From Thermodesulfobacteriota bacterium (GTDB taxonomy: Bacteria > Desulfobacterota_D > UBA1144 > Nemesobacterales > UBA2774): a DNA stretch of 64,000 bases. The position numbers were made by a program, and so were the translations under genes. The DNA lies in assembly GCA_965216785.1 (NCBI GenBank), contig OZ244197.1, positions 2,624,001-2,688,000 on the forward strand. The letters are read 5' to 3'. The notes under the pieces are model-generated. The model was given only the letters and a program-made list of their open reading frames with translations, was not told the DNA's origin and made no database searches. This document shows, piece by piece, positions 48,267 through 64,000 of the stretch. The number at the start of each line of letters is the position of its first letter. Position 1 is the stretch's first letter.

Positions 48267-48341
48267 GCCGACGTAGCTCAGCGGTAGAGCAGCTCACTCG
48301 TAATGAGCAGGTCATCGGTTCAATTCCGATCGTCGGCTCCA
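48267..48341 (+). tRNA. tRNA-Thr(CGT), encoded CCA; integration target
   Basis: GCCGACGTAGCTCAGCGGTAGAGCA-GCTCA-CTCGTAA-TGAGC-AGGTCATCGGTTCAATTCCGATCGTCGGCTCCA. Confidence 0.97.
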
Positions 48342-48460
48342 ATGTTTACTGATAGTTACATCACTATTAGGTACTGGATAATTACCAGTGTCTTCTCCCT
48401 GTCTAACCACTACACTTTAATTTATGTCTACTGTGAATCTTACGCAGGAGGCAAAGACTA

Positions 48461-49501
48461 ATGGCTTCATTAGTATTCAAACATAATAGTTACTATGCTG
48501 TATTCAGTGTTAATAAGAGGAAGAAGTGGATAAGAATCGGTAAGGTTAGTAAACCAGAAGCGAAGAAAATTCTTAAACAACTGGAAGCTGAACATCTAAA
48601 AGGGAAATTGGGATTAGTAGAAAATAAGCAAATCCTACTGGATGATTTTCTAAATGAATATCTAGCCCACTCTAAAACGAATAAAGCCCCAAATACTTAT
48701 AGGCTGGAAAAAGGAATAGCTAAAACTATTAGATCACATTTCGGTAATATTCTTTTAACAACAATTGATAACCGCGGGCTAGATACTTATAAAGCAAGCA
48801 GAGTAAATAAAGGGTTAAAACCTTCAAGCATTAATAGAGAAATAATGGCTATTAAATATATGCTAAGGAAAGCTTATGATTGGAAGTATATTGAGCATAT
48901 ACCTAATATTAAGTTATTAAAGATTCCCAATAGACCTGTTCAATTTTTATCAGTGGATGAAATTGACAGTCTAATTAACCATTCGAGCATATGGTTAAAG
49001 CCAATAATAATGGTATTGCGTAATACTGGTATGAGGATAGGCGAGCTACTCAACTTACGCTTTAATGATATAGATTTAGCTAGAGGATATATAACTGTTA
49101 GAAGCCCGAAAACTAATAATTATAGAATAGTTCCTATTAACAATGAGCTTAGCACCCTACTCCATTGGCTTACTAATAATTATATAGCCCCGAAGGGTTT
49201 AACTGTTAAGCCTCGATCCAACTTACATAAGGAATATTTGTTTTGTCATTCAGATGGAACTAGAATTAAGAGCATTAAGACTAGTTTTAATAAAGCATGT
49301 AAAAGAGCAGGTATTAAAGCCACTGTACATATGCTTAGACACAGCTTCGCTTCATATTTAGTAATGAATGGGGTGGATTTAGTATCGGTTAAAGAGTTAT
49401 TAGGCCATACAAGTATTAATACAACAATGATTTATTCACATATATCTAATGAGCATAAGAATAATTCAGTTTCTAGGTTGCCATGGTTGAACAACTATTA
49501 A
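48461..49501 (+). CDS. tyrosine integrase with N-terminal arm-binding-like domain
   Basis: Catalytic set apparently intact: TGMRIGE, PKT, HMLRHSFAS, LLGH, TMIYSH; AGGAGG RBS. Confidence 0.95.
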   Translation: MASLVFKHNSYYAVFSVNKRKKWIRIGKVSKPEAKKILKQLEAEHLKGKLGLVENKQILLDDFLNEYLAHSKTNKAPNTYRLEKGIAKTIRSHFGNILLTTIDNRGLDTYKASRVNKGLKPSSINREIMAIKYMLRKAYDWKYIEHIPNIKLLKIPNRPVQFLSVDEIDSLINHSSIWLKPIIMVLRNTGMRIGELLNLRFNDIDLARGYITVRSPKTNNYRIVPINNELSTLLHWLTNNYIAPKGLTVKPRSNLHKEYLFCHSDGTRIKSIKTSFNKACKRAGIKATVHMLRHSFASYLVMNGVDLVSVKELLGHTSINTTMIYSHISNEHKNNSVSRLPWLNNY

Positions 49502-49514
49502 TTCATTTAGATTG

Positions 49515-50222
49515 TTAGTGGCATAGATCCTTTATTGCATCATAGGCTAGGAATAAGCCTAATTCCCCAGCTTTAGATAGGTCTAAGCACCCGGAGTCTA
49601 TTTGACCAATAGCTAATTTAGACATGCCTCTTCCCATATATCCTTTAGCATCCTTAGAATTTAACTGTATAACTTTGTTGAAGTCTACAATACTACCTCT
49701 ATAGTCTCTTAATTCAGATTTGGCAAGCCCCCTTATCAAATAAGTGTAAGAATCATTAGGCTCCAATTCAATACATTTACCAAAATCCTTCATAGCTTCA
49801 TCATAAAAACCCAATTTAATTTTTACACTACCCCTATTTGTATATGCATGACAATTATTAGGGTTAATTTCAAGAGCTTTATCATAATCTAGCATAGCCC
49901 CACTATAGTCACCTAATCTAGACATTGCACCACCTCTAGAGGCGTATGCACTAGAATCGTTTGGGTTTAACTCTATTACTTTACTGTAGTCTGCTATTGC
50001 ACCACGATAGTCACCCAGCTGATATTTAGAACTACCCCTACCGCTGTATGCATCAGTATCGTTAGGTTTAAGCTGTATAACATTACTGTAATCTATTATT
50101 GCACCTTTGAAGTCTTTATTACCAAATTTAATAAAGGCATTGAATCTGTAGTCTTCAACGTTTTGAGCTATGGCGAAATTAGTGAACAAGGTTAAAATAC
50201 ATATAATTACAGCTACTTTCAT
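49515..50222 (-). CDS. secreted TPR-repeat protein
   Basis: Signal peptide; 34-aa repeats AY..RG.....LGDY.GA..DY.K.IEL.P; cap GCLDLSKAGELG. Confidence 0.9.
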   Translation of the reverse strand: MKVAVIICILTLFTNFAIAQNVEDYRFNAFIKFGNKDFKGAIIDYSNVIQLKPNDTDAYSGRGSSKYQLGDYRGAIADYSKVIELNPNDSSAYASRGGAMSRLGDYSGAMLDYDKALEINPNNCHAYTNRGSVKIKLGFYDEAMKDFGKCIELEPNDSYTYLIRGLAKSELRDYRGSIVDFNKVIQLNSKDAKGYMGRGMSKLAIGQIDSGCLDLSKAGELGLFLAYDAIKDLCH

Positions 50223-50289
50223 AATTGCTTTATAATAACACATAGATCATGGTAATATAAAGTTGTCATTGACTAAAAGGATAGTATTT

Positions 50290-50607
50290 ATGAAATCATC
50301 TAAATCTATTGCTTTACTAGCCATGTTTGGCTTTTTATTAATATGCATAGGTTGTGCATCACACGAAACAGAAAATATGTTGAACGCTGGATTAGGAAAT
50401 ATGACATATGAGAATTCTTTGCAAATGTTTGGAGCTCCGTATATGTGTGCCGAGGAAGGTAGAACCAAAACATGTACTTGGATATATGGAAGTAGCAAAT
50501 TTGGTTGTGTCGGTAAAGTTTGTGGCACCGTCGACCCACCGACAGCTTATCTAACTTTTGTAAATGGCGTATTAAGTAATTGGCGATTGACCGGTAAATG
50601 GAAGTAA
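50290..50607 (+). CDS. small Cys-rich lipoprotein
   Basis: CIGC lipobox; FGAP...TWIY...LTFVNGVLSNW resembles a BamE/SmpA-like fold. Confidence 0.75.
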   Translation: MKSSKSIALLAMFGFLLICIGCASHETENMLNAGLGNMTYENSLQMFGAPYMCAEEGRTKTCTWIYGSSKFGCVGKVCGTVDPPTAYLTFVNGVLSNWRLTGKWK

Positions 50608-50678
50608 AATTATCATACAACCTGTTGATAATCAGATTAATAATATTCGTATTGCTACCTAATAATTTCAGCTAATGG

Positions 50679-51500
50679 TTATTGACATAATATGTTTATA
50701 TTATTATATGCTTGAAAATACCCCATTTCACCTGCTTTAGATAGGTCTAAACATCCAGATTCTTTTTGACCTAGTAATATTTTAGCAATTCCCCTGTAAT
50801 TATATGCTTGAGCATCATTGGGAGTAAGTTCAATGACTTTGTTATAATCTACTATCGCACCACGATAATCGGCTTGTCGATATTTAAAACTACCCCTGTT
50901 GTAATATGCTTGAGCATCATTGGGAGTAAGTTCAATGACTTTGTTATAGTCAATCAATGCACCTCTATGATCACCCAATACAATCTTAGTATTAGCCCTG
51001 TTACCATATATTTCAGCGATATTCGGGTCTAGCTCTATAGCCTTGTTATAGTCAATCAATGCACCTCTATAATCACCCAGATTGAACTTCGCATTTCCTC
51101 TGAAATAGTATGCCCTTGTGAAAACAGAGTCTAATAGAATAGCCTTGTTAAAGTCTTGTATCGCTCCTCTATAATCATCCAGGCGGATTTTAGCTTCACC
51201 CCTCTGAAGATACCCATCAGGAATACCAGGGTTTAACTCAATAGCCTTATTGTAATCTTTTATAGCACCTCTATAGTCACCCAGCATACTCTTAGCTAAA
51301 CCCCTGCCCCCGTATGCTGAATACGCAACAGGCCCATTAATCTTTGTTAACTCTATAGCTTTATTAAATTGTTCTATGGCACCTGTATAATCACCTTTTT
51401 CAACATTTTCTATTCCAGCATTAAAAAAATCCTTTGCTGTTTGCGCCAGAATTAAGTTTGGAATCATAACAAGTAAAAAAATAAGACCTATTATTTTCAT
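50679..51500 (-). CDS. secreted TPR-repeat protein, paralogue of 49515-50222
   Basis: Signal peptide; about seven TPRs; cap GCLDLSKAGEMG. Confidence 0.9.
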   Translation of the reverse strand: MKIIGLIFLLVMIPNLILAQTAKDFFNAGIENVEKGDYTGAIEQFNKAIELTKINGPVAYSAYGGRGLAKSMLGDYRGAIKDYNKAIELNPGIPDGYLQRGEAKIRLDDYRGAIQDFNKAILLDSVFTRAYYFRGNAKFNLGDYRGALIDYNKAIELDPNIAEIYGNRANTKIVLGDHRGALIDYNKVIELTPNDAQAYYNRGSFKYRQADYRGAIVDYNKVIELTPNDAQAYNYRGIAKILLGQKESGCLDLSKAGEMGYFQAYNNINILCQ

Positions 51501-51581
51501 AGTTACCTAACTTTCCCTAATAATCACAATAAAATAGACCGTATTATTTATCAAGTAGCTTTTTAATCTAAAGCTAATAGC

Positions 51582-52592
51582 CTAGTTTGTCATAAATAAA
51601 AACTTATCTTCATCATAACCAGAAGAATAATATTCAAATTGCTCTCTAATCATTTCAGCCAAGTGATTAAATATCGATTCATCCTGTACAAGTTTTACAA
51701 ATTCTGAGTAGCTAGGCCTTTTATAAAATGTTTTCCTCTTAACAGCTTCCTCTAGTATGTTGTCAAAATGAATACATTTCATTAGCCACTCCATAGTATC
51801 TTTAAGAGCCAGCCATAAGGGAACATTTCTCTCTAGTTCAATAAATAGACTTTTTAGTACCTTCTCCTTTTTACTCAGTTTTATCACATCAGCTCCTACT
51901 CCGAGACTTATATATTTATATAACGTCTTAAAATCACCTCTCACATAAGCTTCAAGCATAAATAGAAGTAGTTCATTAAAGCACGGTTCTATTACATTAG
52001 CCACTCTTTCTAAATGGATTTTAATATCATTACCGCCTTTATTTAACCGTTTCTCTCCCAATATATACTTAGAATTTGTAAAGTTTATTACTGAGAAAAA
52101 TTCAAGGTTATCTGTATATATCACATATAAGAATACGCCCTTACCTGTAGTCCCATTGGCTTCTTTGGCCCTATTTAAATCTAATAAATACTCACTATAG
52201 TCATACTCAACTGGGTTTATATTCAACTCTTTATCTTTCCACACCCCACATCTATCGATATACGAATAATTCTTAGTGCTATTTTCAATATTAAAGTGAT
52301 CGCCAGTCAAATATTTCTTAATGGATTCCCTATGAGCCTTACTGAATTTGTATGGGGTACTATCATCTAAATTATCGATACGTTTTAGCTCCTGTATACC
52401 GTGATGAACACAATATTTCCCCAGTATTAATCTATCTATATCATAGTCGTACCAACCCTTCGGATACCTGATATTAGGTTGTCTATTTATTGTTTTCACT
52501 AAGACATCATAATTGTCATTGTAAATACAACGGGTATAAAGCTGAAAGTTGTTAAACATCTCCGGATTTCTTAGATTAGCTGTTTCTGTCAT
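51582..52592 (-). CDS. hypothetical protein (336 aa)
   Basis: Long ORF in AT-rich DNA, GGGAG RBS, no motif recognised. Confidence 0.75.
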   Translation of the reverse strand: MTETANLRNPEMFNNFQLYTRCIYNDNYDVLVKTINRQPNIRYPKGWYDYDIDRLILGKYCVHHGIQELKRIDNLDDSTPYKFSKAHRESIKKYLTGDHFNIENSTKNYSYIDRCGVWKDKELNINPVEYDYSEYLLDLNRAKEANGTTGKGVFLYVIYTDNLEFFSVINFTNSKYILGEKRLNKGGNDIKIHLERVANVIEPCFNELLLFMLEAYVRGDFKTLYKYISLGVGADVIKLSKKEKVLKSLFIELERNVPLWLALKDTMEWLMKCIHFDNILEEAVKRKTFYKRPSYSEFVKLVQDESIFNHLAEMIREQFEYYSSGYDEDKFLFMTN

Positions 52593-52723
52593 TTTTATCT
52601 CCCTTCTTAAAACTTATTTGCCTTATATATTTTCATGTAGTGTTGATAGAATTAGAATTCGTATAATGCTGGAGCTATACCTATCTATCAACTGTCTATT
52701 TTATTTCTAGAAGCACGGTAGCA

Positions 52724-52990
52724 CTACATTAGATCACGCTCAGAATGGATTTTAATCATTCGTTCACGGGCTAATTCTCTCTGTTTAGTTGATACCTTCT
52801 TTGGAGGGCTAATTTTAACCCAGTTCTTAGGTACTATGTAAACCTCATAATCGGCCTGCTTATGACTCGGCTCCACGCCTAATTTCTTCATTCTGGTTTT
52901 AACCCGTCTTTGTCTGGTAGTTATGCTTGCGGTATCTTCTGCATCGTTAAAATTAATAACTGTCTCGGTTTCTAGTTTAGTTAGACTCAT
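52724..52990 (-). CDS. small basic hypothetical protein of mobile-element type
   Basis: GAGGA RBS; ETVINFN.AE.TA...VPK.WVKI.PP.K.S..QRE pattern recalled from phage/ICE hypotheticals. Confidence 0.75.
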   Translation of the reverse strand: MSLTKLETETVINFNDAEDTASITTRQRRVKTRMKKLGVEPSHKQADYEVYIVPKNWVKISPPKKVSTKQRELARERMIKIHSERDLM

Positions 52991-53014
52991 TATCCTCTAC
53001 ATTCCTCCTATATC

Positions 53015-53311
53015 TTATTCTTTATTTAGCGGTGGTACTAAGTAATAATCTGGATCTCTATGACCCTCGCGTCGGTTATCATTGGCAAACATCATATAAT
53101 TGACATTCCCGTCTTCTGTTGTCTCCGCATAATCAATGACCTTTTGTAAATCTTCCTTTGTCATACTGACGGAGAAGTATGGCATATCGTATCCATCTCT
53201 AGCGTATAACCAGGCCGCACCCCAGGTTATAAACTCCTTCTTATCATCTTTAACATGTTTCACCTCTTCCTTAGCCGATATCCGAAAAAATGACCTTTTT
53301 TTCTTAGACAT
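53015..53311 (-). CDS. small hypothetical protein, DUF736-like
   Basis: GAGGA RBS; GAAW, PYFSV, F.ND....H.DPDY motifs. ORF likely real, family call tentative. Confidence 0.6.
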   Translation of the reverse strand: MSKKKRSFFRISAKEEVKHVKDDKKEFITWGAAWLYARDGYDMPYFSVSMTKEDLQKVIDYAETTEDGNVNYMMFANDNRREGHRDPDYYLVPPLNKE

Positions 53312-53481
53312 ATCCTATTCCTCGCTTGTTTATTTTATTCAGTATATGACATATTCAACTACTTTATATCACCTACTGAACAATATTATTCATAATTAGT
53401 AGTCGTAGAATTTAGATGGTATTAATCCAGGATACTTTAAACCAAATTTGATTGATATTATCACCCATCCATCTAATTCAA

Positions 53482-53526
53482 CACAACAAAATGTGTTATA
53501 AATACATAGAACCACAATATGTTGTG
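53482..53526. promoter_or_regulatory. tandem NrdR-box-like operators overlapping a leftward promoter
   Basis: CACAACAAAATGTG (53482) and CACAATATGTTGTG (53513), 31 bp apart; TTGACA on minus strand at 53529-53534. Confidence 0.55.
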
Positions 53527-53759
53527 TTTGTCAAGTATTTTTCACAAATTGTGGTAGATTAGTGTAAATATCTAATGCAATGTCTGAACATATGAAAACA
53601 ATTGAAGATTAAGTGAAAATAATATGCTCAATAAGGGAAAAGGCTATTAAGTCAATATAACCCGCGGCTAGTTATTAACTTTATTAAACACGTCTACCCC
53701 CTATATATAATTAATATATATACACGGTTAATATATGGGTATTCATGATTTAACTGTAA

Positions 53760-54070
53760 GCTTAATGTTTAATAATAACTGCACGTTTATTAAACGTAAG
53801 TATTTAACCTTTACTAATGAAAAGAAAAACATATGTTTAATAAACATACGTACTAACAAGTACCTACATGTATCTAATAGTTAATACATACGAACTAATA
53901 GTTAATGCGTATGTATTAACTGGTAATACATATGATAAACTAGTAGAATAAGTGGTAAACCAGTAGAACTTATGGTAATCAATTGGTAGTATTCTTTTCA
54001 TTTAGTAAAAACTGGTATATATGTTAATACATGTGTTATGTAGTAACCAATGGTTATGTATTAACTAGTT
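53760..54070. repeat. nested inverted-repeat cluster in non-coding AT-rich DNA
   Basis: AGTTAATACATACG/CGTATGTATTAACT (53879-53921); GTTAATACAT/ATGTATTAAC (54023-54065); TTTACTAATGAAAAGAA/TTCTTTTCATTTAGTAAA (53810-54009). Confidence 0.75.
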
Positions 54071-54678
54071 ATTAGGCCCGGATTAATCATTACTGGATTA
54101 AATAAAGCTTATTGACCTTTAAACAAATATAATTTACTAGACCCTGATTACCATTTAACTATTTAGCATCCATGTACCCTTATCAACTCATGATTAATCG
54201 TTGAAAAATCCGCATAATAGACATTCTGTGCATAATATTGGGAATTAATTATCATATATTTATAGATGGTTACAATACACACTTAAAGTAATAATCTCTT
54301 GCTTACTATGTGGAATTTAGTAGATTATGATAATTGTATATTAATACCGGATAACTATTCCCCCAATACTTGTATATGTTATATATAAAGTATATAGTAT
54401 ACTAATCCACGGGCTGGTGGTAGAGTAGCTGGGATGGATAATTTACCCTTTATGGCGGGCTAATCTATTATGAGCATTTGATAAATGTGGATTAGTATTT
54501 AATAGAAAACAATGTTCTTAGACATTAGATGACAATCTACTAACATAAACCAATAATGACCTATTCCCTTATGATTTATATTCAATCATCTCTTTATCCA
54601 GCCTTAGACTAGCTGTACAATTGTTTATGAATATTGTACAATGCTTGTCAATTATTGATTCTAAAGGAGAATGGATAA

Positions 54679-55950
54679 ATGAATAGACTTAAATTATTCT
54701 TACCTATAGTAGCTTTAATATTTATTTTTGCGCTGCATCAACAACCTGCAAACGCCGAAGATATAACTCCTGTAATCAGGCAATTAACAAACTTCGATAG
54801 TGACGTTCTCCCAGGCAGAAGACCTGTAAGCCAGGACGGGTCGTTGATAGCGGCAAGTAGCGGTGAAAATATTAACGGCGGTAACCCGGATGAGAACGGT
54901 GAGATATATTTATTTCACGTACCTGTTTTATCTATCCGTAATATTGATCAAATAACCAATACCTCTAACTGTTTCAACTTCGATCCCACTATAAGCGGCG
55001 ACGGAAACATAATAGCTTTTATTTCAGACTGTGATATTACGGGACAAAACCAGAATAACCTTCAGCAGGGCTTCTTCTTTAATAGGCTAAGCGGTCAGTT
55101 CACCCAGTTCACGAATAATACGAATGGAAATGTTTCAATAATTGTGATAAGCAAAGACGGCTCGACTATCGCAATCAGATCAACCATGAACATAAACGGC
55201 GGTAATCCGGATTTCAGCGATGAGATTTTCACCTTTAACATTAATAGCGGGACGCTAACGCAGATTACTATGTCTAATACTGACAGTACTGATCCGGATA
55301 TAAACGCCGACGGGTCTGTTATAATTATGAGATCGCGGGCCAACTTCACGGGACAGAACCCGACAAACCGAAACCAGGTTTTTAGATACGACGGAAATTT
55401 CCAACAAATCACAAACATTACCACGGGAACTACAACTCTCCCATCGGTAAACGACGACGGGTCAATTATATCGTATGGCTCAAACGGGGACGTTCTTTTA
55501 CCAAACCCTGGATTTATTCATCGGATTTACTTGTACGACAACAATACAGGTACGACCACGCAAATAACCAATAACAATACCGGGAGCTCTAATATCCCAA
55601 CCCTTAGCGGTGACGGCAAGAGGCTGTTATTCAAATCGAACGGTGATGTATTGGGACCCGGTAACGGCTTTGATCAGCTTTTCTTATATGAGATGGGCGT
55701 AATTACTCAGCTCACGAATTTTACCGGCGCTGAAGTTGATAATATATTTCAGCCTAGTATAAGCTGTGACGGAGAGTCTTTTGTTTTCGGTGGGAACGTA
55801 CCAGATAGTAGAATTCAGCTTTTCAAGGGGCTATTCGAGGTTCCGGTGAGGCCTATTCCTACCCTTTCAGAGTGGGGTCTAGTAGCTATGGCTGGAGTAT
55901 TGGGAATCGTAGGTCTACTAGCTATTCGCAGAAGAAAAGCACGGATTTAG
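54679..55950 (+). CDS. IPTL-CTERM sorted surface protein with TolB/PD40-like beta-propeller repeats
   Basis: Signal peptide; repeats QITN....P.IS.DG..I.F.S; tail VRPIPTLSEWGLVAMAGVLGIVGLLAIRRRK. Confidence 0.92.
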   Translation: MNRLKLFLPIVALIFIFALHQQPANAEDITPVIRQLTNFDSDVLPGRRPVSQDGSLIAASSGENINGGNPDENGEIYLFHVPVLSIRNIDQITNTSNCFNFDPTISGDGNIIAFISDCDITGQNQNNLQQGFFFNRLSGQFTQFTNNTNGNVSIIVISKDGSTIAIRSTMNINGGNPDFSDEIFTFNINSGTLTQITMSNTDSTDPDINADGSVIIMRSRANFTGQNPTNRNQVFRYDGNFQQITNITTGTTTLPSVNDDGSIISYGSNGDVLLPNPGFIHRIYLYDNNTGTTTQITNNNTGSSNIPTLSGDGKRLLFKSNGDVLGPGNGFDQLFLYEMGVITQLTNFTGAEVDNIFQPSISCDGESFVFGGNVPDSRIQLFKGLFEVPVRPIPTLSEWGLVAMAGVLGIVGLLAIRRRKARI

Positions 55951-56009
55951 TAATTCATAATTCCCCCTTATCTATCCTCCTCCTGCAGGCAATTAGGGGG
56001 GAAGCTGGT

Positions 56010-56035
56010 ATGAGGGGAGTTTTGGCTCCCCTCAT
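56010..56035 (+). terminator. stem-loop after IPTL gene 1
   Basis: ATGAGGGGAG-TTTTGG-CTCCCCTCAT; U-tract weak. Confidence 0.55.
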
Positions 56036-56091
56036 TAAAATCCATCTGTCGACCTATAGCTGGGCCTAATCAACTGATGAGATATATAGCG

Positions 56092-56323
56092 CTATTCTAC
56101 TATTGAACCCCCAGTAACAACATGATAAATTAGATACTTACGCAGGAGGCATATGCATTAAAAGTGTCTAACCATTATCTAACCATTCAATCGTATTTAG
56201 TTAATGTGAGGTCTTATGCTAGATAATTTATCAAGTGTTAACAGCTCATTAGCTGACCAAATATTAGCTAATATCTCACTCGTAATGAGCAGGTCATCGG
56301 TTCAATTCCGATCGTCGGCTCCA
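56092..56323 (+). repeat. 232-bp right-end repeat copy 1 (arm plus 49-bp att core)
   Basis: Matches 58375-58606 with one visible mismatch (ACAGCTCATT vs ACAGCTCCTT). Confidence 0.95.
56103..56131 (+). promoter_or_regulatory. outward-facing sigma70-type promoter in the right arm (second copy 58386-58414)
   Basis: TTGAAC-17 bp-TAAATT with extended -10 TGn. Confidence 0.6.
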
Positions 56324-56563
56324 GTAAATACTAGGACTTTCTCCGACTCACGGCGAGAACATCTAGGGCTTTCTACCCATTGTCTACCAACTAGAACCTC
56401 TTGCTTTAGATGACAACCTACTATTATTAACTAATAATTGCCCATTCCCTTTTGATTTGTATAGTCAGTTATCCCTTTATCCAGCCTTTGACTAGTGTTT
56501 ACATTGACCTACACATGTAGTAGAATAGCTACAATATTTTTGTTTAAAGGAGGATATTAAACA

Positions 56564-57322
56564 ATGTTTACAACCAACAGACTTTATTTATCAGTGTTAT
56601 TAATAGCTGTGTTAGCAGTAGTTCCAATATGGTCAGCTAGTGCACAGGATCCGGATCAAGTAGACAGTGTTGACCCATTATTTATCGATCATTTAAACCT
56701 AATCAGTGAAATGACAGTTCCAAATGTGCTCATTGAGTTTGACGACATGCCGCAGGGACCCACAACAATCGAAGATATACTGAACACATTCCCCGATTCA
56801 TGTCTTGGGAATATCACTATCACATCCAAACAGCCACCCTTTGTAGGATCGTCTGGTATATATAATTCTAACACAGGCGGTGGTAGAGCGCTTGCCTTAA
56901 ATCCCGATAATTCAGGTGGTTTATATCTTGTAGATCCGGGGGGGCTTTTTCGCCCGAATGATGACATAGTTATCGATTTGATTGTGCCTGTTAGACAGAT
57001 AGGAATTGAATTAGGCGACGTGTCTGGGACAATGAGTGCTGAGTTTTTTAACGGCGCCGTGTCTCTTGGAACTATTGGCTTACCTATAAGCTCAGTTGAC
57101 AGGACCAATACAATAGAAAGTGATATTGCATTCAATCGCGTTGTAATATCTTCACCATTTGCACCTGATCTTATTGATTTTGTAATGCCCTCTGTCAGAG
57201 TACAGTTGTGTAATTTCGTAAGACCTATACCGACGCTTTCCGAATGGGGTCTAATAGCTATGGCAGGAGTATTAGGAATAATCGCTATTTTGGCTATCCG
57301 CAGAAGAAAGGCAGCTGCCTAA
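56564..57322 (+). CDS. IPTL-CTERM sorted surface protein, unknown beta-rich passenger
   Basis: AAGGAGG RBS, signal peptide ending ASA, tail VRPIPTLSEWGLIAMAGVLGIIAILAIRRRK. Confidence 0.92.
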   Translation: MFTTNRLYLSVLLIAVLAVVPIWSASAQDPDQVDSVDPLFIDHLNLISEMTVPNVLIEFDDMPQGPTTIEDILNTFPDSCLGNITITSKQPPFVGSSGIYNSNTGGGRALALNPDNSGGLYLVDPGGLFRPNDDIVIDLIVPVRQIGIELGDVSGTMSAEFFNGAVSLGTIGLPISSVDRTNTIESDIAFNRVVISSPFAPDLIDFVMPSVRVQLCNFVRPIPTLSEWGLIAMAGVLGIIAILAIRRRKAAA

Positions 57323-57356
57323 TCGGCAACCAACTTATACAATACAATTTAACTTT

Positions 57357-57383
57357 AAAAAGGGGAGCTTCGGCTCCCTTTTT
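57357..57383. terminator. intrinsic terminator, probably bidirectional
   Basis: AAAAAG-GGGAGC-TTCG-GCTCCC-TTTTT. Confidence 0.88.
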
Positions 57384-57539
57384 AGTTTGGTTTTAATATC
57401 TATAAATCCAACTTAAATCCTTGTTGACATATGGGGTGCTAGACAATTATTGTAATATATTAATATTGTGTTGGTACACATTGGTTACAACTTAAATTTG
57501 ATTGTGCATGAATAAGTAATACTTACATAAGAAGGAGCT

Positions 57540-58265
57540 ATGATTATGAGCAATCAATCAATGGTTATTGGAAATGAATCTGCAAACTGTAGAAAATCTA
57601 ACTGGTGTAGAATCACTACAATTTTATCCATTTTATTACTAGGTATGTATATCGCATCACAGACTGTATTGGCAGCAAACCCGACGGATCCAGAGTGGGT
57701 ACTGAAAGCCAACTACGTAGATGCTTGCAGTTGCGACGTGGCATGCCCCTGTATCTTCGGTCAGCCATCAACTCACGGTTATTGTAAGGGTGCAACATTG
57801 GTGGAGATCACAGAAGGATATTATGGCAAGGTCGACCTAACTGGTGTGAGTGTTCTGGCTGTGTACAACAGTGGCAAATGGATTAAATTTTTTGTTAGTG
57901 AGAATGCAACCAAAGAACAGACAGATGCAGTAGTTGAATTCCTCCCGGTCGCTGAAGGTTTCTTTAAAGCTCCTATCCGCGAAGTAAAGAACCAGCCAAT
58001 ATCAGTATTACGTACAAGTGACAAAGTGAAAATTTCTACTGAAGAGACTCTAATCGAGTTAGAGCAGATACAGAATGCCAACGGAGACCCAATCAAGGTA
58101 CTAGGATTACCTGCTCATGGATTCCCGGGCTTGCCCTATCTTGACCATACACAATATAAAACAGTAACATTGGTACATGATAGTGAAAAGGAAAAATTCA
58201 ATTTTTCTGAGACCAATGGGTACACAGCAAGGATAGATGCTTCTAGCGATTCGAAAGAGCAATAA
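57540..58265 (+). CDS. DUF1326-like secreted metal-binding protein
   Basis: W.LKANYVDACSCDVACPCIFG..STHGYC, I.EG.YGKVDLTG. Confidence 0.82.
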   Translation: MIMSNQSMVIGNESANCRKSNWCRITTILSILLLGMYIASQTVLAANPTDPEWVLKANYVDACSCDVACPCIFGQPSTHGYCKGATLVEITEGYYGKVDLTGVSVLAVYNSGKWIKFFVSENATKEQTDAVVEFLPVAEGFFKAPIREVKNQPISVLRTSDKVKISTEETLIELEQIQNANGDPIKVLGLPAHGFPGLPYLDHTQYKTVTLVHDSEKEKFNFSETNGYTARIDASSDSKEQ

Positions 58266-58374
58266 CTAAAGATCTAAATTACGTGTTTCTACCAAACTAT
58301 TAGATCCAGTCGACTCAAACATCCATTTCTCAACCCTTATACAGGCCTAACCAATTTAGTAAGAGTTACTACCC

Positions 58375-58606
58375 CTATTCTACTATTGAACCCCCAGTAA
58401 CAACATGATAAATTAGATACTTACGCAGGAGGCATATGCATTAAAAGTGTCTAACCATTATCTAACCATTCAATCGTATTTAGTTAATGTGAGGTCTTAT
58501 GCTAGATAATTTATCAAGTGTTAACAGCTCCTTAGCTGACCAAATATTAGCTAATATCTCACTCGTAATGAGCAGGTCATCGGTTCAATTCCGATCGTCG
58601 GCTCCA
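58375..58606 (+). repeat. 232-bp right-end repeat copy 2 (arm plus 49-bp att core)
   Basis: Direct repeat of 56092-56323. Confidence 0.95.
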
Positions 58607-58713
58607 TTGTTTATAGTAAGTTACACCACATTTAGATACTGGCTCACGGATATTATCTACCCAACTCACTGTTATTCATGCCTACTGAGAATCTTACACG
58701 GGAGGCAAAACTA

Positions 58714-58899
58714 ATGGCTACACTAGTCCACAAGTATAAGAGTTACTATGGGGATTTAATCTATGGCCTATCATTCGGTACCTGTTGTGGAATCGTAAGA
58801 CCAATACCGACACTTTCTGAATGAGGTCTAATAGCTATGGCAGGAGTTTTAGGGATAATTGGGTTACTGGCACTCCGAAGAAGAAATCAAACAGCATAA
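58714..58899 (+). pseudogene. chimeric relic: integrase N-terminus fused in frame to an IPTL-CTERM tail with a Trp-to-stop change
   Basis: Reads MATLVHKYKSYYGDLIYGLSFGTCCGIVRPIPTLSE*GLIAMAGVLGIIGLLALRRRNQTA*; compare integrase start MASLVFKHNSYY. Confidence 0.88.
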
Positions 58900-58968
58900 A
58901 CTGAAAGAATAAATCTGATCACACAAACGGGAACAGTACACTCAAACCGATAAAGAAAGATAAGAGCA

Positions 58969-60645
58969 TTATCTTTCTTTGCCCCTCTGCCGCAAATATT
59001 TATCGATATCCTCCACATTCTTTTGGTTAAATTTCTTAAAAGTCGTAAAGCCGTCGCTCGTCATTAAAATATCGGTCCTGTTCCATACGGCTAAATTGAC
59101 ATCCCTGTCCGATGTTGCGGATAAATTGTCTTCGAGCTGTTTCAAAATCTCAGGGGATAGAGTATCTGTACCGATGGTCTCGACTAAAACATACCAAGAT
59201 TCGCCCTTTGGCCTGTGATGAATGTTTATCGGGATAATATTGCTGTATTGTTCAAACTCTCCTAATAACGCTTCATCGATCTCACCCCTCAATCGTTCTT
59301 CCTCCTCTGTAAAGCCTGCGTAAATGTAGCCGGGAAGAAGGTCTCCGCTCGCATCGGAATAGGTAATTTCTTCATTTTTTATAATGAGGCTCATCTTTGG
59401 GTTTTGCATTTTACTTCTCAGGTCCTCCTGAAGCTCCCCTATCTCGCTCTCCGTAAGATTCCTATAGCTCTGTATTGTAGCGACAACGGTCGGCCCGCGG
59501 AGCAGTTCAACATAGTCTACATCTACGAGCGACATACCGTGCCAGTGGGTAAACCTTTCTATAAGCTCTTTCTCGATTACATTCACGGCTTTTTTCCAGT
59601 CGGTAAGCGATTCCTTAAGAAAGAATCCATCGAGGTTCTGTCTGATGACGTTCTCGCCCGACCCAATAGCGCCAACGTCTTGAGCAAGTACATTCCTGAA
59701 TATAAGCTCTGTAGGTTTCTTTGTCTGCTCTTCGATATTCTTCTGCACCGCTTCGACCTGATAGGGCGTTACCGTCCTCGGACTCTTTATATTTGCCAAT
59801 ACGTACAATTTCCCATTTTCCTCGTCGTAAATAAAACCGTCGAGCGATGTTGTATGAAGCTCTATCATTGCTGATTCCAAAATGTTTTTAATGGTGTTGC
59901 TCAAGTACCTCTCCTGGACAATCTCGATAAGTGAGTAGGTAAGGAACACGCATACGGCTAGAAATCCGATAATTGCCAGACCAAAACGCCTGAGCAGGTC
60001 TTTGGTCGAGACCGAGATCCACCACGGGGAAAGGCCTGCAAGCATGAACGTCGTACCGGCAACTAGCAGTATCGACAGGAAATTTGCAAAAAACAGCATA
60101 AAGGAGCCGAATGCCCCGTAGTAATAGCCGAGCGAAACGCATATACCGGTATTTGATAACGGAGGCACAATGGCTGTAGCTATCGCAACGCCGGGGAGAG
60201 CCGGACTCAATTTTTCATCTATCATAGCATACGCCCCTGCAAAACCGGCCAGTACCGCTACCATAAGATCGAGCAGGGTGGGCTTGGTTCTGGCGAGCAT
60301 TTCAGGGGTTGCTGCAAGCTCCAGAGGCAAAAATCCGATCAGACCCGCAGAAACAATCGCCAGTATGGCACCCAGAATTACTGAGCGCAGGGCTGTGGCC
60401 AGAAGACGGGGTTTGCCTATGACTATGCCAAGGGTGATGCCTATTATGGGGGTCATAAGAGGCGAAACCAGCATAGCTCCGATAATGACCGCAGTGCTGT
60501 TGGATATAAGACCGAAGGCAGCGATGAGTGAAGCAGTGGCCAGAAGAGCGTAGAATCTAAAGCCCGGCTCTGACCCGGTACTGATCTCCTCAATTATTTG
60601 TTCTTTACGCTGCTCAGATACCCTGGTAAAAAATTTAGTAATCAT
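58969..60645 (-). CDS. DUF389/TIGR00341-like membrane protein with long C-terminal extension
   Basis: NSTAVIIGAMLVSPLMTPI, ARTKPTLLDL, LPGVAIATAIVPPL. Confidence 0.88.
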   Translation of the reverse strand: MITKFFTRVSEQRKEQIIEEISTGSEPGFRFYALLATASLIAAFGLISNSTAVIIGAMLVSPLMTPIIGITLGIVIGKPRLLATALRSVILGAILAIVSAGLIGFLPLELAATPEMLARTKPTLLDLMVAVLAGFAGAYAMIDEKLSPALPGVAIATAIVPPLSNTGICVSLGYYYGAFGSFMLFFANFLSILLVAGTTFMLAGLSPWWISVSTKDLLRRFGLAIIGFLAVCVFLTYSLIEIVQERYLSNTIKNILESAMIELHTTSLDGFIYDEENGKLYVLANIKSPRTVTPYQVEAVQKNIEEQTKKPTELIFRNVLAQDVGAIGSGENVIRQNLDGFFLKESLTDWKKAVNVIEKELIERFTHWHGMSLVDVDYVELLRGPTVVATIQSYRNLTESEIGELQEDLRSKMQNPKMSLIIKNEEITYSDASGDLLPGYIYAGFTEEEERLRGEIDEALLGEFEQYSNIIPINIHHRPKGESWYVLVETIGTDTLSPEILKQLEDNLSATSDRDVNLAVWNRTDILMTSDGFTTFKKFNQKNVEDIDKYLRQRGKER

Positions 60646-63757: not shown

Positions 63758-64000
63758 GCTAGACTTCATCTGATATTTGCCATCATCATTTTGTAACCAC
63801 CGGGGAGAAATTGAGTTGACCTTGTTTTCCTTTGATTCTTTTACAGCATTCAGAGTATAAATAAACTAAGAAGTGCCATAAAATAATCAGCATTGACAGT
63901 AGATTATACTAGAGCACATCAGGCTTACGTTATGTTCACAATACCACTAATTTATACCCCTTCTTCTACAGCATTCAGGCTATAAATGTGTCAGGAAGAA

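Follow-up and report, generated by a model that had tools for sequence, protein, structure and literature searches.

The final nucleotides of a tRNA-Thr(CGT) gene recur twice downstream of it in the genome studied here, and each of the three copies is followed by a gene, or the remains of one, for a protein with an IPTL-CTERM sorting signal. Does this array represent a dedicated system that delivers interchangeable surface-protein cassettes, as a preliminary description proposed, or a stack of ordinary islands in a genome rich in such cargo? We analysed a window of 64,000 nt, to which plain coordinates refer, within a genome (G000) that consists of one 3.12-Mb contig without N. The target gene and the two additional copies of its end are as follows:

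48267..48341, + strand: tRNA-Thr(CGT), the integration target; att core copy 1 is 48293-48341
56275..56323, + strand: att core copy 2, at the junction between modules 1 and 2
58558..58606, + strand: att core copy 3, an exact repeat of the tRNA-Thr(CGT) 3' end

All three 49-bp copies that had been reported, beginning at 48293, 56275 and 58558, were recovered; a search against the genome placed the last 49 nt of the tRNA at 56275-56323 and 58558-58606 with 100% identity (E=4e-17). The arm preceding the second and third cores is also common to both (56092-56323 versus 58375-58606, 232 nt with one mismatch, A56248/C58531). A paired arm-type motif is found four times in G000, every copy at a Thr-type att arm, with no control hits, and the att sites are of the lambda type, combining a tRNA core with arm sites. 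Direct repeats of the tRNA 3' end delimit the units and a tyrosine integrase with its catalytic residues lies beside the tRNA, both hallmarks of tRNA-targeted islands. The division into modules by att copies stands as far as the three cores are concerned, but module 3 has the left att only.

Such exact repeats invite the suspicion that module 2 arose by mis-joining of a repeat or exists as a free circle, and short-read contigs do end at both the 49-nt core and the 232-nt arm, which leaves the order of the modules dependent on the single-contig assembly. Against this, two sequencing runs from the source sample each give module 2 as one 2107-nt contig at single-copy depth, 86 compared with 81-88 for its neighbours; the shared arm reaches about 1.7 times single-copy depth, the two runs show both alleles of the arm difference, and the left arms are unique. 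Although these contigs neither establish the module order nor exclude a free circle at 1x, they argue, together with the uninterrupted chromosome contig, that an assembly artefact is very improbable. Depth is flat across the array, and no excision product was seen in contigs that cannot resolve the 49-nt core. Contig joints that might have been excision products were rejected, as they are accounted for by a copy of the att junction in a tRNA-Ser island of G000 and by other paralogues. X5, X6 and X7, represented only by low-depth pieces of 151-213 nt, were left out.

Module 1 contains an integrase, backbone genes and both arms:

48342..48460, + strand: left arm, which contains one arm-type site (48402) as well as the integrase RBS
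48461..49501, + strand: tyrosine integrase, 346 aa, with all six catalytic positions
49515..50243, - strand: TPR protein; TPR genes are present in related elements too
50263..50607, + strand: 114-aa ORF with a weak phrog_3135 match
50679..51500, - strand: second protein annotated as TPR
51582..52592, - strand: 336-aa backbone protein, no Pfam, NCBIfam or PHROG match
52724..52990, - strand: 88-aa ORF, 70% identical to an ORF of the L045 Thr element
53015..53311, - strand: 98-aa ORF, no family match
53312..54524, no strand: AT-rich non-coding stretch (27-29% GC) with inverted repeats
54525..54678, + strand: promoter-like box of the IPTL slot, conserved, also in module 2 and the Ser-island copy
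54679..55950, + strand: IPTL-CTERM gene 1, 423 aa, PD40 beta-propeller passenger, PF18203/TIGR04174 above cut-off
56037..56274, + strand: right arm, with paired arm-type sites at 56167-56185

The integrase retains R192, K217, H290, R293, H316 and Y325 and, as previously claimed, is the only intact one in the array. The left arm of the module is similar to its counterparts in the relatives' Thr elements, the seven closest having z values of 11-32. Homologues of the 336-aa protein lie directly behind PolB in the G011 and G056 elements and in L047, and the AT-rich stretch, which has short motifs in common with the G021 element, may be origin-like. Module 1 lacks the PolB that fuller family members carry, and we recognised neither transfer nor capsid genes in it; its spread would thus need a helper or DNA uptake.

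The tRNA-Thr locus varies among relatives, where we found filled, empty, tandem, IPTL-bearing and IPTL-free states. The L045 site is filled by a 4.6-kb element whose integrase is 60% identical to that of module 1, and its counterpart in G026, with flanks 99.6% identical, is empty, an allele that could also reflect collapse of a MAG at the repeat. The G017 site is empty as well, and G027 has no element behind the tRNA. Three att copies form a tandem array without IPTL at the same tRNA in G021, another IPTL-free tandem array lies at tRNA-Pro in G000, and integrase relics occupy Thr-type sites in G012, G018 and L059. The conclusion that this integrase family targets tRNA-Thr(CGT), is mobile there and builds tandem islands is supported, and to that extent the proposal that one integrase family repeatedly delivers cassettes holds; it is not supported for the cargo, IPTL being present in one of the six complete elements (PolB in three) and missing from the other five.

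The family PolB (PF03175) was found in 4 of 33 family genomes, its single G000 homologue lying in the tRNA-Pro island, and the absence of matches when genome contigs were searched for related loci with a single PolB query is therefore a limit of sensitivity. No match to it was obtained among phages or PDB sequences, and only two weak partial ones among 72,556 plasmids, so that we assign it to PF03175, with piPolB identity no more than a possibility. None of 23 candidate stretches in viral contigs held a relative of the integrase.

IPTL genes occur at the Thr locus in 4 of 18 relatives, including three of the five genomes of the nearest genus (g2), where the genes differ; the closest relatives, G001 and G002 of the same genus, lack coverage of the locus. 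The downstream DUF389 gene is unusable as an anchor because its matches in relatives are about 50% identical, the same as its own paralogue.

Module 2 is a much smaller unit:

56324..56405, + strand: left arm, with paired arm sites at 56372-56390
56406..56563, + strand: second copy of the promoter-like box, 82% identity over 90 nt
56564..57322, + strand: IPTL-CTERM gene 2, 252 aa, PF18203/TIGR04174 above cut-off, no Pfam passenger
57358..57383, + strand: terminator hairpin typical of IPTL genes across the genome
57540..58265, + strand: DUF1326 gene, the cargo other than IPTL
58318..58557, + strand: right arm, almost the same as the module 1 right arm; arm sites paired at 58450-58468

It keeps attL and attR, with site pairs at 56372 and 58450 and flanking cores, but has no integration or transfer genes; its two genes are the only ones present. 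This would make it a cis-mobilisable remnant, still open to excision by the module 1 integrase either singly or jointly with module 1. The paired arm sites and intact IPTL gene also suit a more elaborate scenario, in which a PolB-less branch of the family is a dedicated shuttle for exosortase H (XrtH) substrates, whose integrase-less mini-modules circularise and re-insert as an integron-like means of surface diversification. A left end 97% identical and a right arm 98% identical to those of module 2 were indeed found in X9, a run of another study, at a depth of 2-4. On the other side, the left end was found in none of the 32 family genomes searched, DUF1326 travels with the IPTL gene, and the left-arm site pair also precedes an integrase relic in G012, which points to derivation of module 2 from an integrase-bearing element. 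The mismatched arms, of the G005/G012 type on the left and close to module 1 on the right, further suggest an internally deleted composite.

Module 3 is broken, which again speaks against a dedicated shuttle:

58607..58713, + strand: left arm; the stretch 58558-58750 is 77% identical to 48293-48497
58714..58899, + strand: scar of a deletion that joined the integrase start, in frame, to an IPTL gene end; premature stop at 58822

From 58714 the relic reads through 12 codons of integrase-like sequence, then through the final residues of an IPTL passenger and into the tail, with a TGA at 58822. The claim that each module holds an IPTL gene or relic is thereby borne out, with genes at 54679 and 56564 and this scar as the third, and both module 2 and module 3 have the look of products of decay rather than of purpose-built cassettes. 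No arm or core was found within the next 47 kb. The lack of a right att leaves room for coincidence, in that the module 3 IPTL gene might have been a resident neighbour of the tRNA locus, captured when a deletion extended from the integrase across attR, with the other two genes as chance cargo in an IPTL-rich genome. A 97%-identical scar in X8, from a separate study, implies that the deletion is old; IPTL genes also adjoin tRNA-Leu (183 nt) and tRNA-His (32 nt), and in G003 the tRNA-Thr gene is followed immediately by an IPTL gene, with neither att nor integrase within 13 kb. The G003 gene, however, occupies a place where G021 and G018 have other sequence and is itself an insertion, and the promoter box and the homologous stretch that module 1 shares with the Ser-island copy, both described below, show common descent of the slot. 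We therefore consider coincidence improbable.

How common is this cargo? G000 has 60 IPTL tails, and all but one of the 32 family members have IPTL matches, between 3 and 59 in each genome. XrtH is present in 28 of the 32 family genomes; a complete genome devoid of IPTL, the only such case, yielded no XrtH. As stated earlier, XrtH is not in the window; a genome-wide profile search located a single copy at G000:C1:983605, about 4.5 kb from an ORF that we take, from reading its sequence, to be GroEL-like. TIGR04174, TIGR04177 and NF041730 all score above cut-off in G000, as expected of an XrtH/IPTL-CTERM system, and its IPTL proteins are likely, by prediction, to be sorted to the surface by XrtH. 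Compared with known systems of this kind, the substrates are unusually many (up to 59 matches per genome) for one chromosomal XrtH.

Fifty of the 60 tails lie outside the 14 tRNA islands of G000. The remaining ten fall within 5% of the genome, an enrichment that favours a dedicated shuttle when counted per gene (p=0.01) and loses force per island (p=0.07), as IPTL is present in four of the 14 islands and absent from ten. Genome-wide, IPTL loci are not significantly nearer to tRNAs or integrases than chance (p=0.07-0.58). Nor did any of 26 integron-integrase matches in G000 exceed the cut-off, and the idea of a dedicated integron-like cassette system is not supported by these figures. Pure chance cargo is nevertheless too weak a reading, because IPTL is linked to all three modules, to the Ser-island att copy and to relics in G012, G018, L059 and L047, more often than would be predicted from a spacing of one gene every ~50 kb.

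The passengers of the modules differ, as had been noted, but their tails are not especially alike: nucleotide identity between modules is 72-81%, against a median of 61% and a 90th percentile of 73% for 55 genomic tails, and for both module 1 and module 2 the best-matching tail belongs to a gene elsewhere than in the array. A special similarity of tails within the array was accordingly rejected.

What the module genes do share is their setting. The promoter-like box was found in 3 of 60 IPTL upstream regions, all linked to Thr arms, and the three genes behind it carry a PD40, an uncharacterised and a C-type lectin passenger, so that one slot holds three unrelated passengers, as a shuttle would. 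A scan with promoter/terminator consensus was at chance level (17 versus 15.7); the IPTL genes of modules 1 and 2 each have their own box. The third box belongs to the IPTL-rich tRNA-Ser island, where a fourth Thr arm-core junction sits between IPTL genes, as expected of a captured circle junction. Module 1 and this copy are homologous over 462 nt spanning tail, terminator, arm and core, while the passenger of the Ser-island lectin matches paralogue 2140675. Similarly, the module 2 gene matches paralogue G000:2705203 only over the 5' 71 nt (80%) and the 3' 168 nt (85%), with like tail and terminator and an unrelated centre. These patterns suggest passenger exchange with IPTL paralogues, anchored on the conserved tail of ~100 nt and the terminator.

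Taken with the differing IPTL genes at the Thr locus in genus g2, these points keep the dedicated shuttle in view, but with IPTL in so few complete elements and islands we regard it as unlikely. Equally doubtful is a bolder version, in which Dadabacteria PolB/integrase elements spawned PolB-less shuttles with a fixed slot, and domain swaps with the ~60 XrtH substrates plus mobile minicircles would make a two-step surface diversifier. In that version minicircles would excise, re-insert at tRNA-Thr and recombine into the tRNA-Ser island. The explanation that we favour, and think probable, is a tandem stack of small tRNA-Thr(CGT) islands of one integrase family, eroded by deletion, with IPTL as cargo from the ~60-gene host family; an ordinary island stack with locally common cargo is likely, rather than a dedicated integron-like cassette machine.

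In such a stack, one tyrosine-integrase family would have integrated repeatedly and site-specifically at tRNA-Thr(CGT), with subsequent erosion by deletion. Each new element would enter at the regenerated core beside the tRNA and push older ones outwards. The right end of the element in this host lineage may be a slot composed of promoter box, gene, tail, terminator and arm, whose passenger could be swapped with IPTL paralogues by recombination anchored on tail and terminator, judging from the similarity patterns. This exchange would be independent of the integrase and would act on chromosomal IPTL genes too.

Several known systems offer parallels. In Dehalococcoides, tandem islands bounded by direct repeats lie behind a stable-RNA gene, ssrA, and carry recurrent cargo of one expanded family, rdhA; 16 of 31 have an integration module and 15 do not, and integration and cargo modules have separate histories (PMC3146451). 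Those islands use tmRNA, a serine integrase and a 20-bp repeat, whereas tRNA-Thr, a tyrosine integrase and a 49-bp repeat are used here; the present cargo is also predicted to be surface-sorted, the modules are three and small, and most family members lie outside islands. Module 2 fits the definition of the ICESt1-related CIMEs of Streptococcus, for which integration, decay that keeps attL and attR without integrase, and new insertion at the regenerated site are described (PMC5704250). As no conjugation module was recognised in module 1, ICE-type cis-mobilisation does not apply as such. Prochlorococcus tycheposons are likewise small elements that target tRNA genes by means of a tyrosine integrase; they carry replication genes along with adaptive cargo and remodel islands (10.1101/2020.12.28.424599). 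The replication gene of the present family, however, is a PF03175 PolB and the cargo is different. Like pipolins (PMC11551731, 10.1101/2020.04.24.059261), fuller family members have a family-B polymerase together with a tyrosine recombinase and att repeats of tRNA type, yet module 1 has no PolB and family elements measure 4.6-8 kb against ~20 kb; with no PolB inside and the only G000 homologue in the tRNA-Pro island, membership of modules 1-3 in the pipolins was rejected.

Integrons are defined by IntI and attI/attC. The array resembles them in lining up several short units at a single site, headed by one recombinase, and differs in its tRNA-core, arm-type att sites, in a promoter-like box for each unit and in modules of 2.3-8 kb. 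The module 1 integrase scores 102 bits against TIGR02249 (cut-off 265). Integron membership was rejected because IntI is lacking and the repeats are tRNA cores with arm-type pairs, attI/attC being judged here from the type of repeat.

Accretion at tRNA genes with integrase-less remnants, including single-family cargo such as rdhA, is thus an already described, ordinary architecture. Our literature search, whose coverage lay outside subscription journals, found no paper on this combination, and neither IPTL nor XrtH occurs in the accessible text of 10.1101/2023.06.07.544157. The value of the finding is specific to the lineage: in Dadabacteria, a family of exosortase H substrates has expanded to tens of genes per genome, with direct signs that passengers have been exchanged at a conserved tail, and small tRNA elements are one route by which IPTL genes can move. 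If module 2 can indeed be excised, and if there is turnover of the slot between strains, the locus would offer a testable mechanism for placing C-terminal sorting signals on unrelated domains.

The tandem feature behind tRNA-Thr(CGT) is real. As the preliminary description had stated, the last 49 nt of the tRNA gene recur exactly at 56275 and 58558, and its placement of the IPTL-CTERM (hereafter IPTL) genes, the relic and the sole intact integrase agrees with ours. GC content falls to 27-45% over 48500-59000, against about 46% around it, in a genome (G000) assembled as one 3.12-Mb contig. The dehydrogenase neighbouring the locus has cluster-mates labelled Candidatus Dadabacteria or Thermodesulfobacteriota. 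An assembly artefact had been considered; however, in contigs from two source-sample runs, module 2 is a single 2107-nt contig with a depth equal to its neighbours, the arm common to modules 1 and 2 has about 1.7x depth, and each run shows a different allele of the single arm difference. The repeats are therefore real, the order of the modules being taken from the assembly. The locus comprises:

48267-48341, tRNA-Thr(CGT)
Module 1 (8.0 kb), integrase, two TPR genes, four ORFs without Pfam match, AT-rich stretch
Module 1, right part, promoter-like box, PD40 IPTL gene, right arm
Module 2 (2283 bp), left arm, box as in module 1, IPTL gene, DUF1326, right arm
Module 3, left arm, then an in-frame fusion of 12 integrase codons with the last part of an IPTL gene, premature stop

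Low-GC genes (HxlR, SnoaL, DSBA) from 60770 to the window end at 64000, extending to about 64.5 kb, may be what erosion has left of the outermost island.

The att sites are of the lambda type, with a tRNA core and arms bearing paired TCTA(A/C)C(C/A)A sites; the genome contains this pair four times, each time at a Thr-type arm, and the control gave no match. The right arms of modules 1 and 2 differ at 1 of 232 positions, whereas the left arm of module 2 is unrelated to that of module 1 (z 0.7-1.5) and resembles arms of two relatives, G005 (z 11) and G012 (z 7.8), which lie next to an integrase or its relic. This combination suggests, at the sequence level, that module 2 is a chimeric, internally deleted element. 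No right end of module 3 was found within 47 kb; a 97% identical copy of its scar occurs in a run from another study. Decayed elements have repeatedly kept no more of the integrase than its first 12-57 codons (window 58714; L027:6475-6666; L059:142-405; L064:9998-10144), and that of L059 terminates in an IPTL-type terminator. The right arm at 56130-56150 repeats the integrase RBS region of 48437-48460 (TTACGCAGGAGGCA) behind a TG-containing -10-like box, conserved in relatives, which is perhaps a promoter or regulatory site from which the integrase would be expressed in the circle, or, in the tandem array, the module that follows.

Related integrases (53-84% identity) occur at tRNA-Thr, Pro, Met, Leu and Ala genes. 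The tRNA-Thr site is empty in G017 and in G026, where the flanks are 99.6% identical to those of the 4.6-kb element on L045. Among the six att-to-att elements (module 1, the G000 tRNA-Pro element, G005, G021-B, L045 and G056), IPTL is found in module 1 alone and PF03175 PolB in three. Partial or decayed elements carry IPTL genes in G012, G018, L047 and L059, and none within the available DNA of G011, G021-A, L044, L046 and L048. Module 1 is without PolB, yet it retains a 336-aa gene that adjoins PolB in relatives; a pipolin identity of modules 1-3 was rejected, as none of the three contains a PolB. The family PolB has 39 homologues (E<=1e-10), and plasmid, phage and PDB collections yielded nothing strongly similar to it, so that its identity as a pipolin polymerase is not established. 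Compact elements of 6-8 kb at tRNAs (G000:C1:109834-116017, L071; L024, L037, L078, L080) combine a related integrase with a PolB of ~750 aa ending in an HTH, and are possibly an undescribed self-synthesising family, distinct from pipolins. A three-part tRNA-Pro(CGG) array (G000:C1:77157-116017) has elements 5' and 3', three integrases and no IPTL genes. By ORF reading, a third Thr module of G021 (L096:776-818, L026:5400-12000) holds heavy-metal efflux-like ORFs and no IPTL.

IPTL tails number 60 in the genome, at 29 loci with relics included (54 by TIGR04174). Exosortase H, which the preliminary description had not seen in the window, is present as a single XrtH with a partner gene 1.7 Mb away; among 32 family genomes, 31 have IPTL matches and 28 XrtH. 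The 14 tRNA-repeat-bounded islands, 5% of the genome, contain 10 of the 60 tails, six of them in one island, against 2.7 expected (p=0.010); in this count the relic of module 3 was scored as outside. Counted per island, 4 of 14 hold any IPTL (expected 1.65, p=0.067), and IPTL loci are not significantly nearer tRNAs or integrases across the 29 loci. The supposed excess of IPTL genes in islands is significant per gene, but not per island. Behind tRNA-Thr(CGT), tails occur in 4 of the 18 relatives that have this tRNA and downstream DNA (G003, G012, G018, G022), among them three of the five in genus g2; as kin, the relatives are not independent. The stretches covered were about 4 to 15 kb long. 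The exception is G012, with 0.5 kb between the tRNA and the end of its contig and with the IPTL-arm-core junction on a different contig. G010 and G016, in which the link to the tRNA is not assembled, are excluded; in G032 an IPTL gene is 7.5 kb away from an att fragment without a link to the tRNA. The expected variability of this locus was recovered, as empty and filled sites and as IPTL in these four relatives, but regular IPTL delivery was not, given the one complete element in six. From the relatives and the mixed island statistics, IPTL is therefore a recurrent cargo in the lineage and no rule. The first 640 kb of G000 has none of the 60 tails, and many tails are followed by a near-identical hairpin (GGGAGCTTCGGCTCCC). 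In genus g5 (L045:14866-17407; L035; L086), tRNA-Thr is directly followed by a tandem of three secreted paralogues that gave no IPTL match.

A tRNA-Ser(TGA) island (G000:C1:1598985-1618899, L070) carries six IPTL genes or relics and an AEP primase. Within it lies a fourth Thr att (arm 87%, plus core; junction 1606810-1607264) with an IPTL gene on either side. This copy is homologous to module 1 over 462 nt (80%) of tail, terminator, arm and core, and in the upstream box; its passenger, the domain ahead of the tail, is a C-type lectin that in its first part resembles the chromosomal paralogue at 2140675. The box occurs in 3 of 60 IPTL upstream regions, each Thr-arm-linked. Similarity of the module-2 gene to the paralogue at 2705203 is confined to the 5' 71 nt and the 3' 168 nt. 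From these alignments we infer that passengers have been exchanged, with the conserved tail and terminator serving as the anchor; DNA uptake is a possible route, as a lead only, because a ComEC-family gene is present. The intact arms of module 2, the Thr att junction in the Ser island and the conserved slot (box, passenger, tail, terminator and arm) would also suit a dedicated shuttle of IPTL cassettes, which we consider unlikely. We rather favour, as the probable explanation, repeated site-specific accretion at tRNA-Thr followed by decay of the elements, whose IPTL cargo would come from an expanded host family and would undergo tail-anchored domain swaps inside the slot.

Accretion and decay agree with the three-step scheme for CIMEs, integrase-less remnants keeping attL and attR, in PMC5704250. 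Dehalococcoides ssrA arrays are similar in accretion and in islands with family cargo but no integration module (15 of 31 islands, together holding 38 rdhA genes; PMC3146451), and tycheposons are a further analogue. The stack acts somewhat like a cassette array, yet it is not an integron: in family searches of the genome, no integrase passed the cut-off for the integron type. The combination does appear undescribed, as had been supposed, in literature outside subscription journals on IPTL-CTERM, on exosortase with genomic islands, on Dadabacteria with exosortase (for which no paper turned up) and on PEP-CTERM with cassettes and integrons. The architecture of the tRNA-Thr stack is of a known type, and its lineage-specific details merit follow-up.
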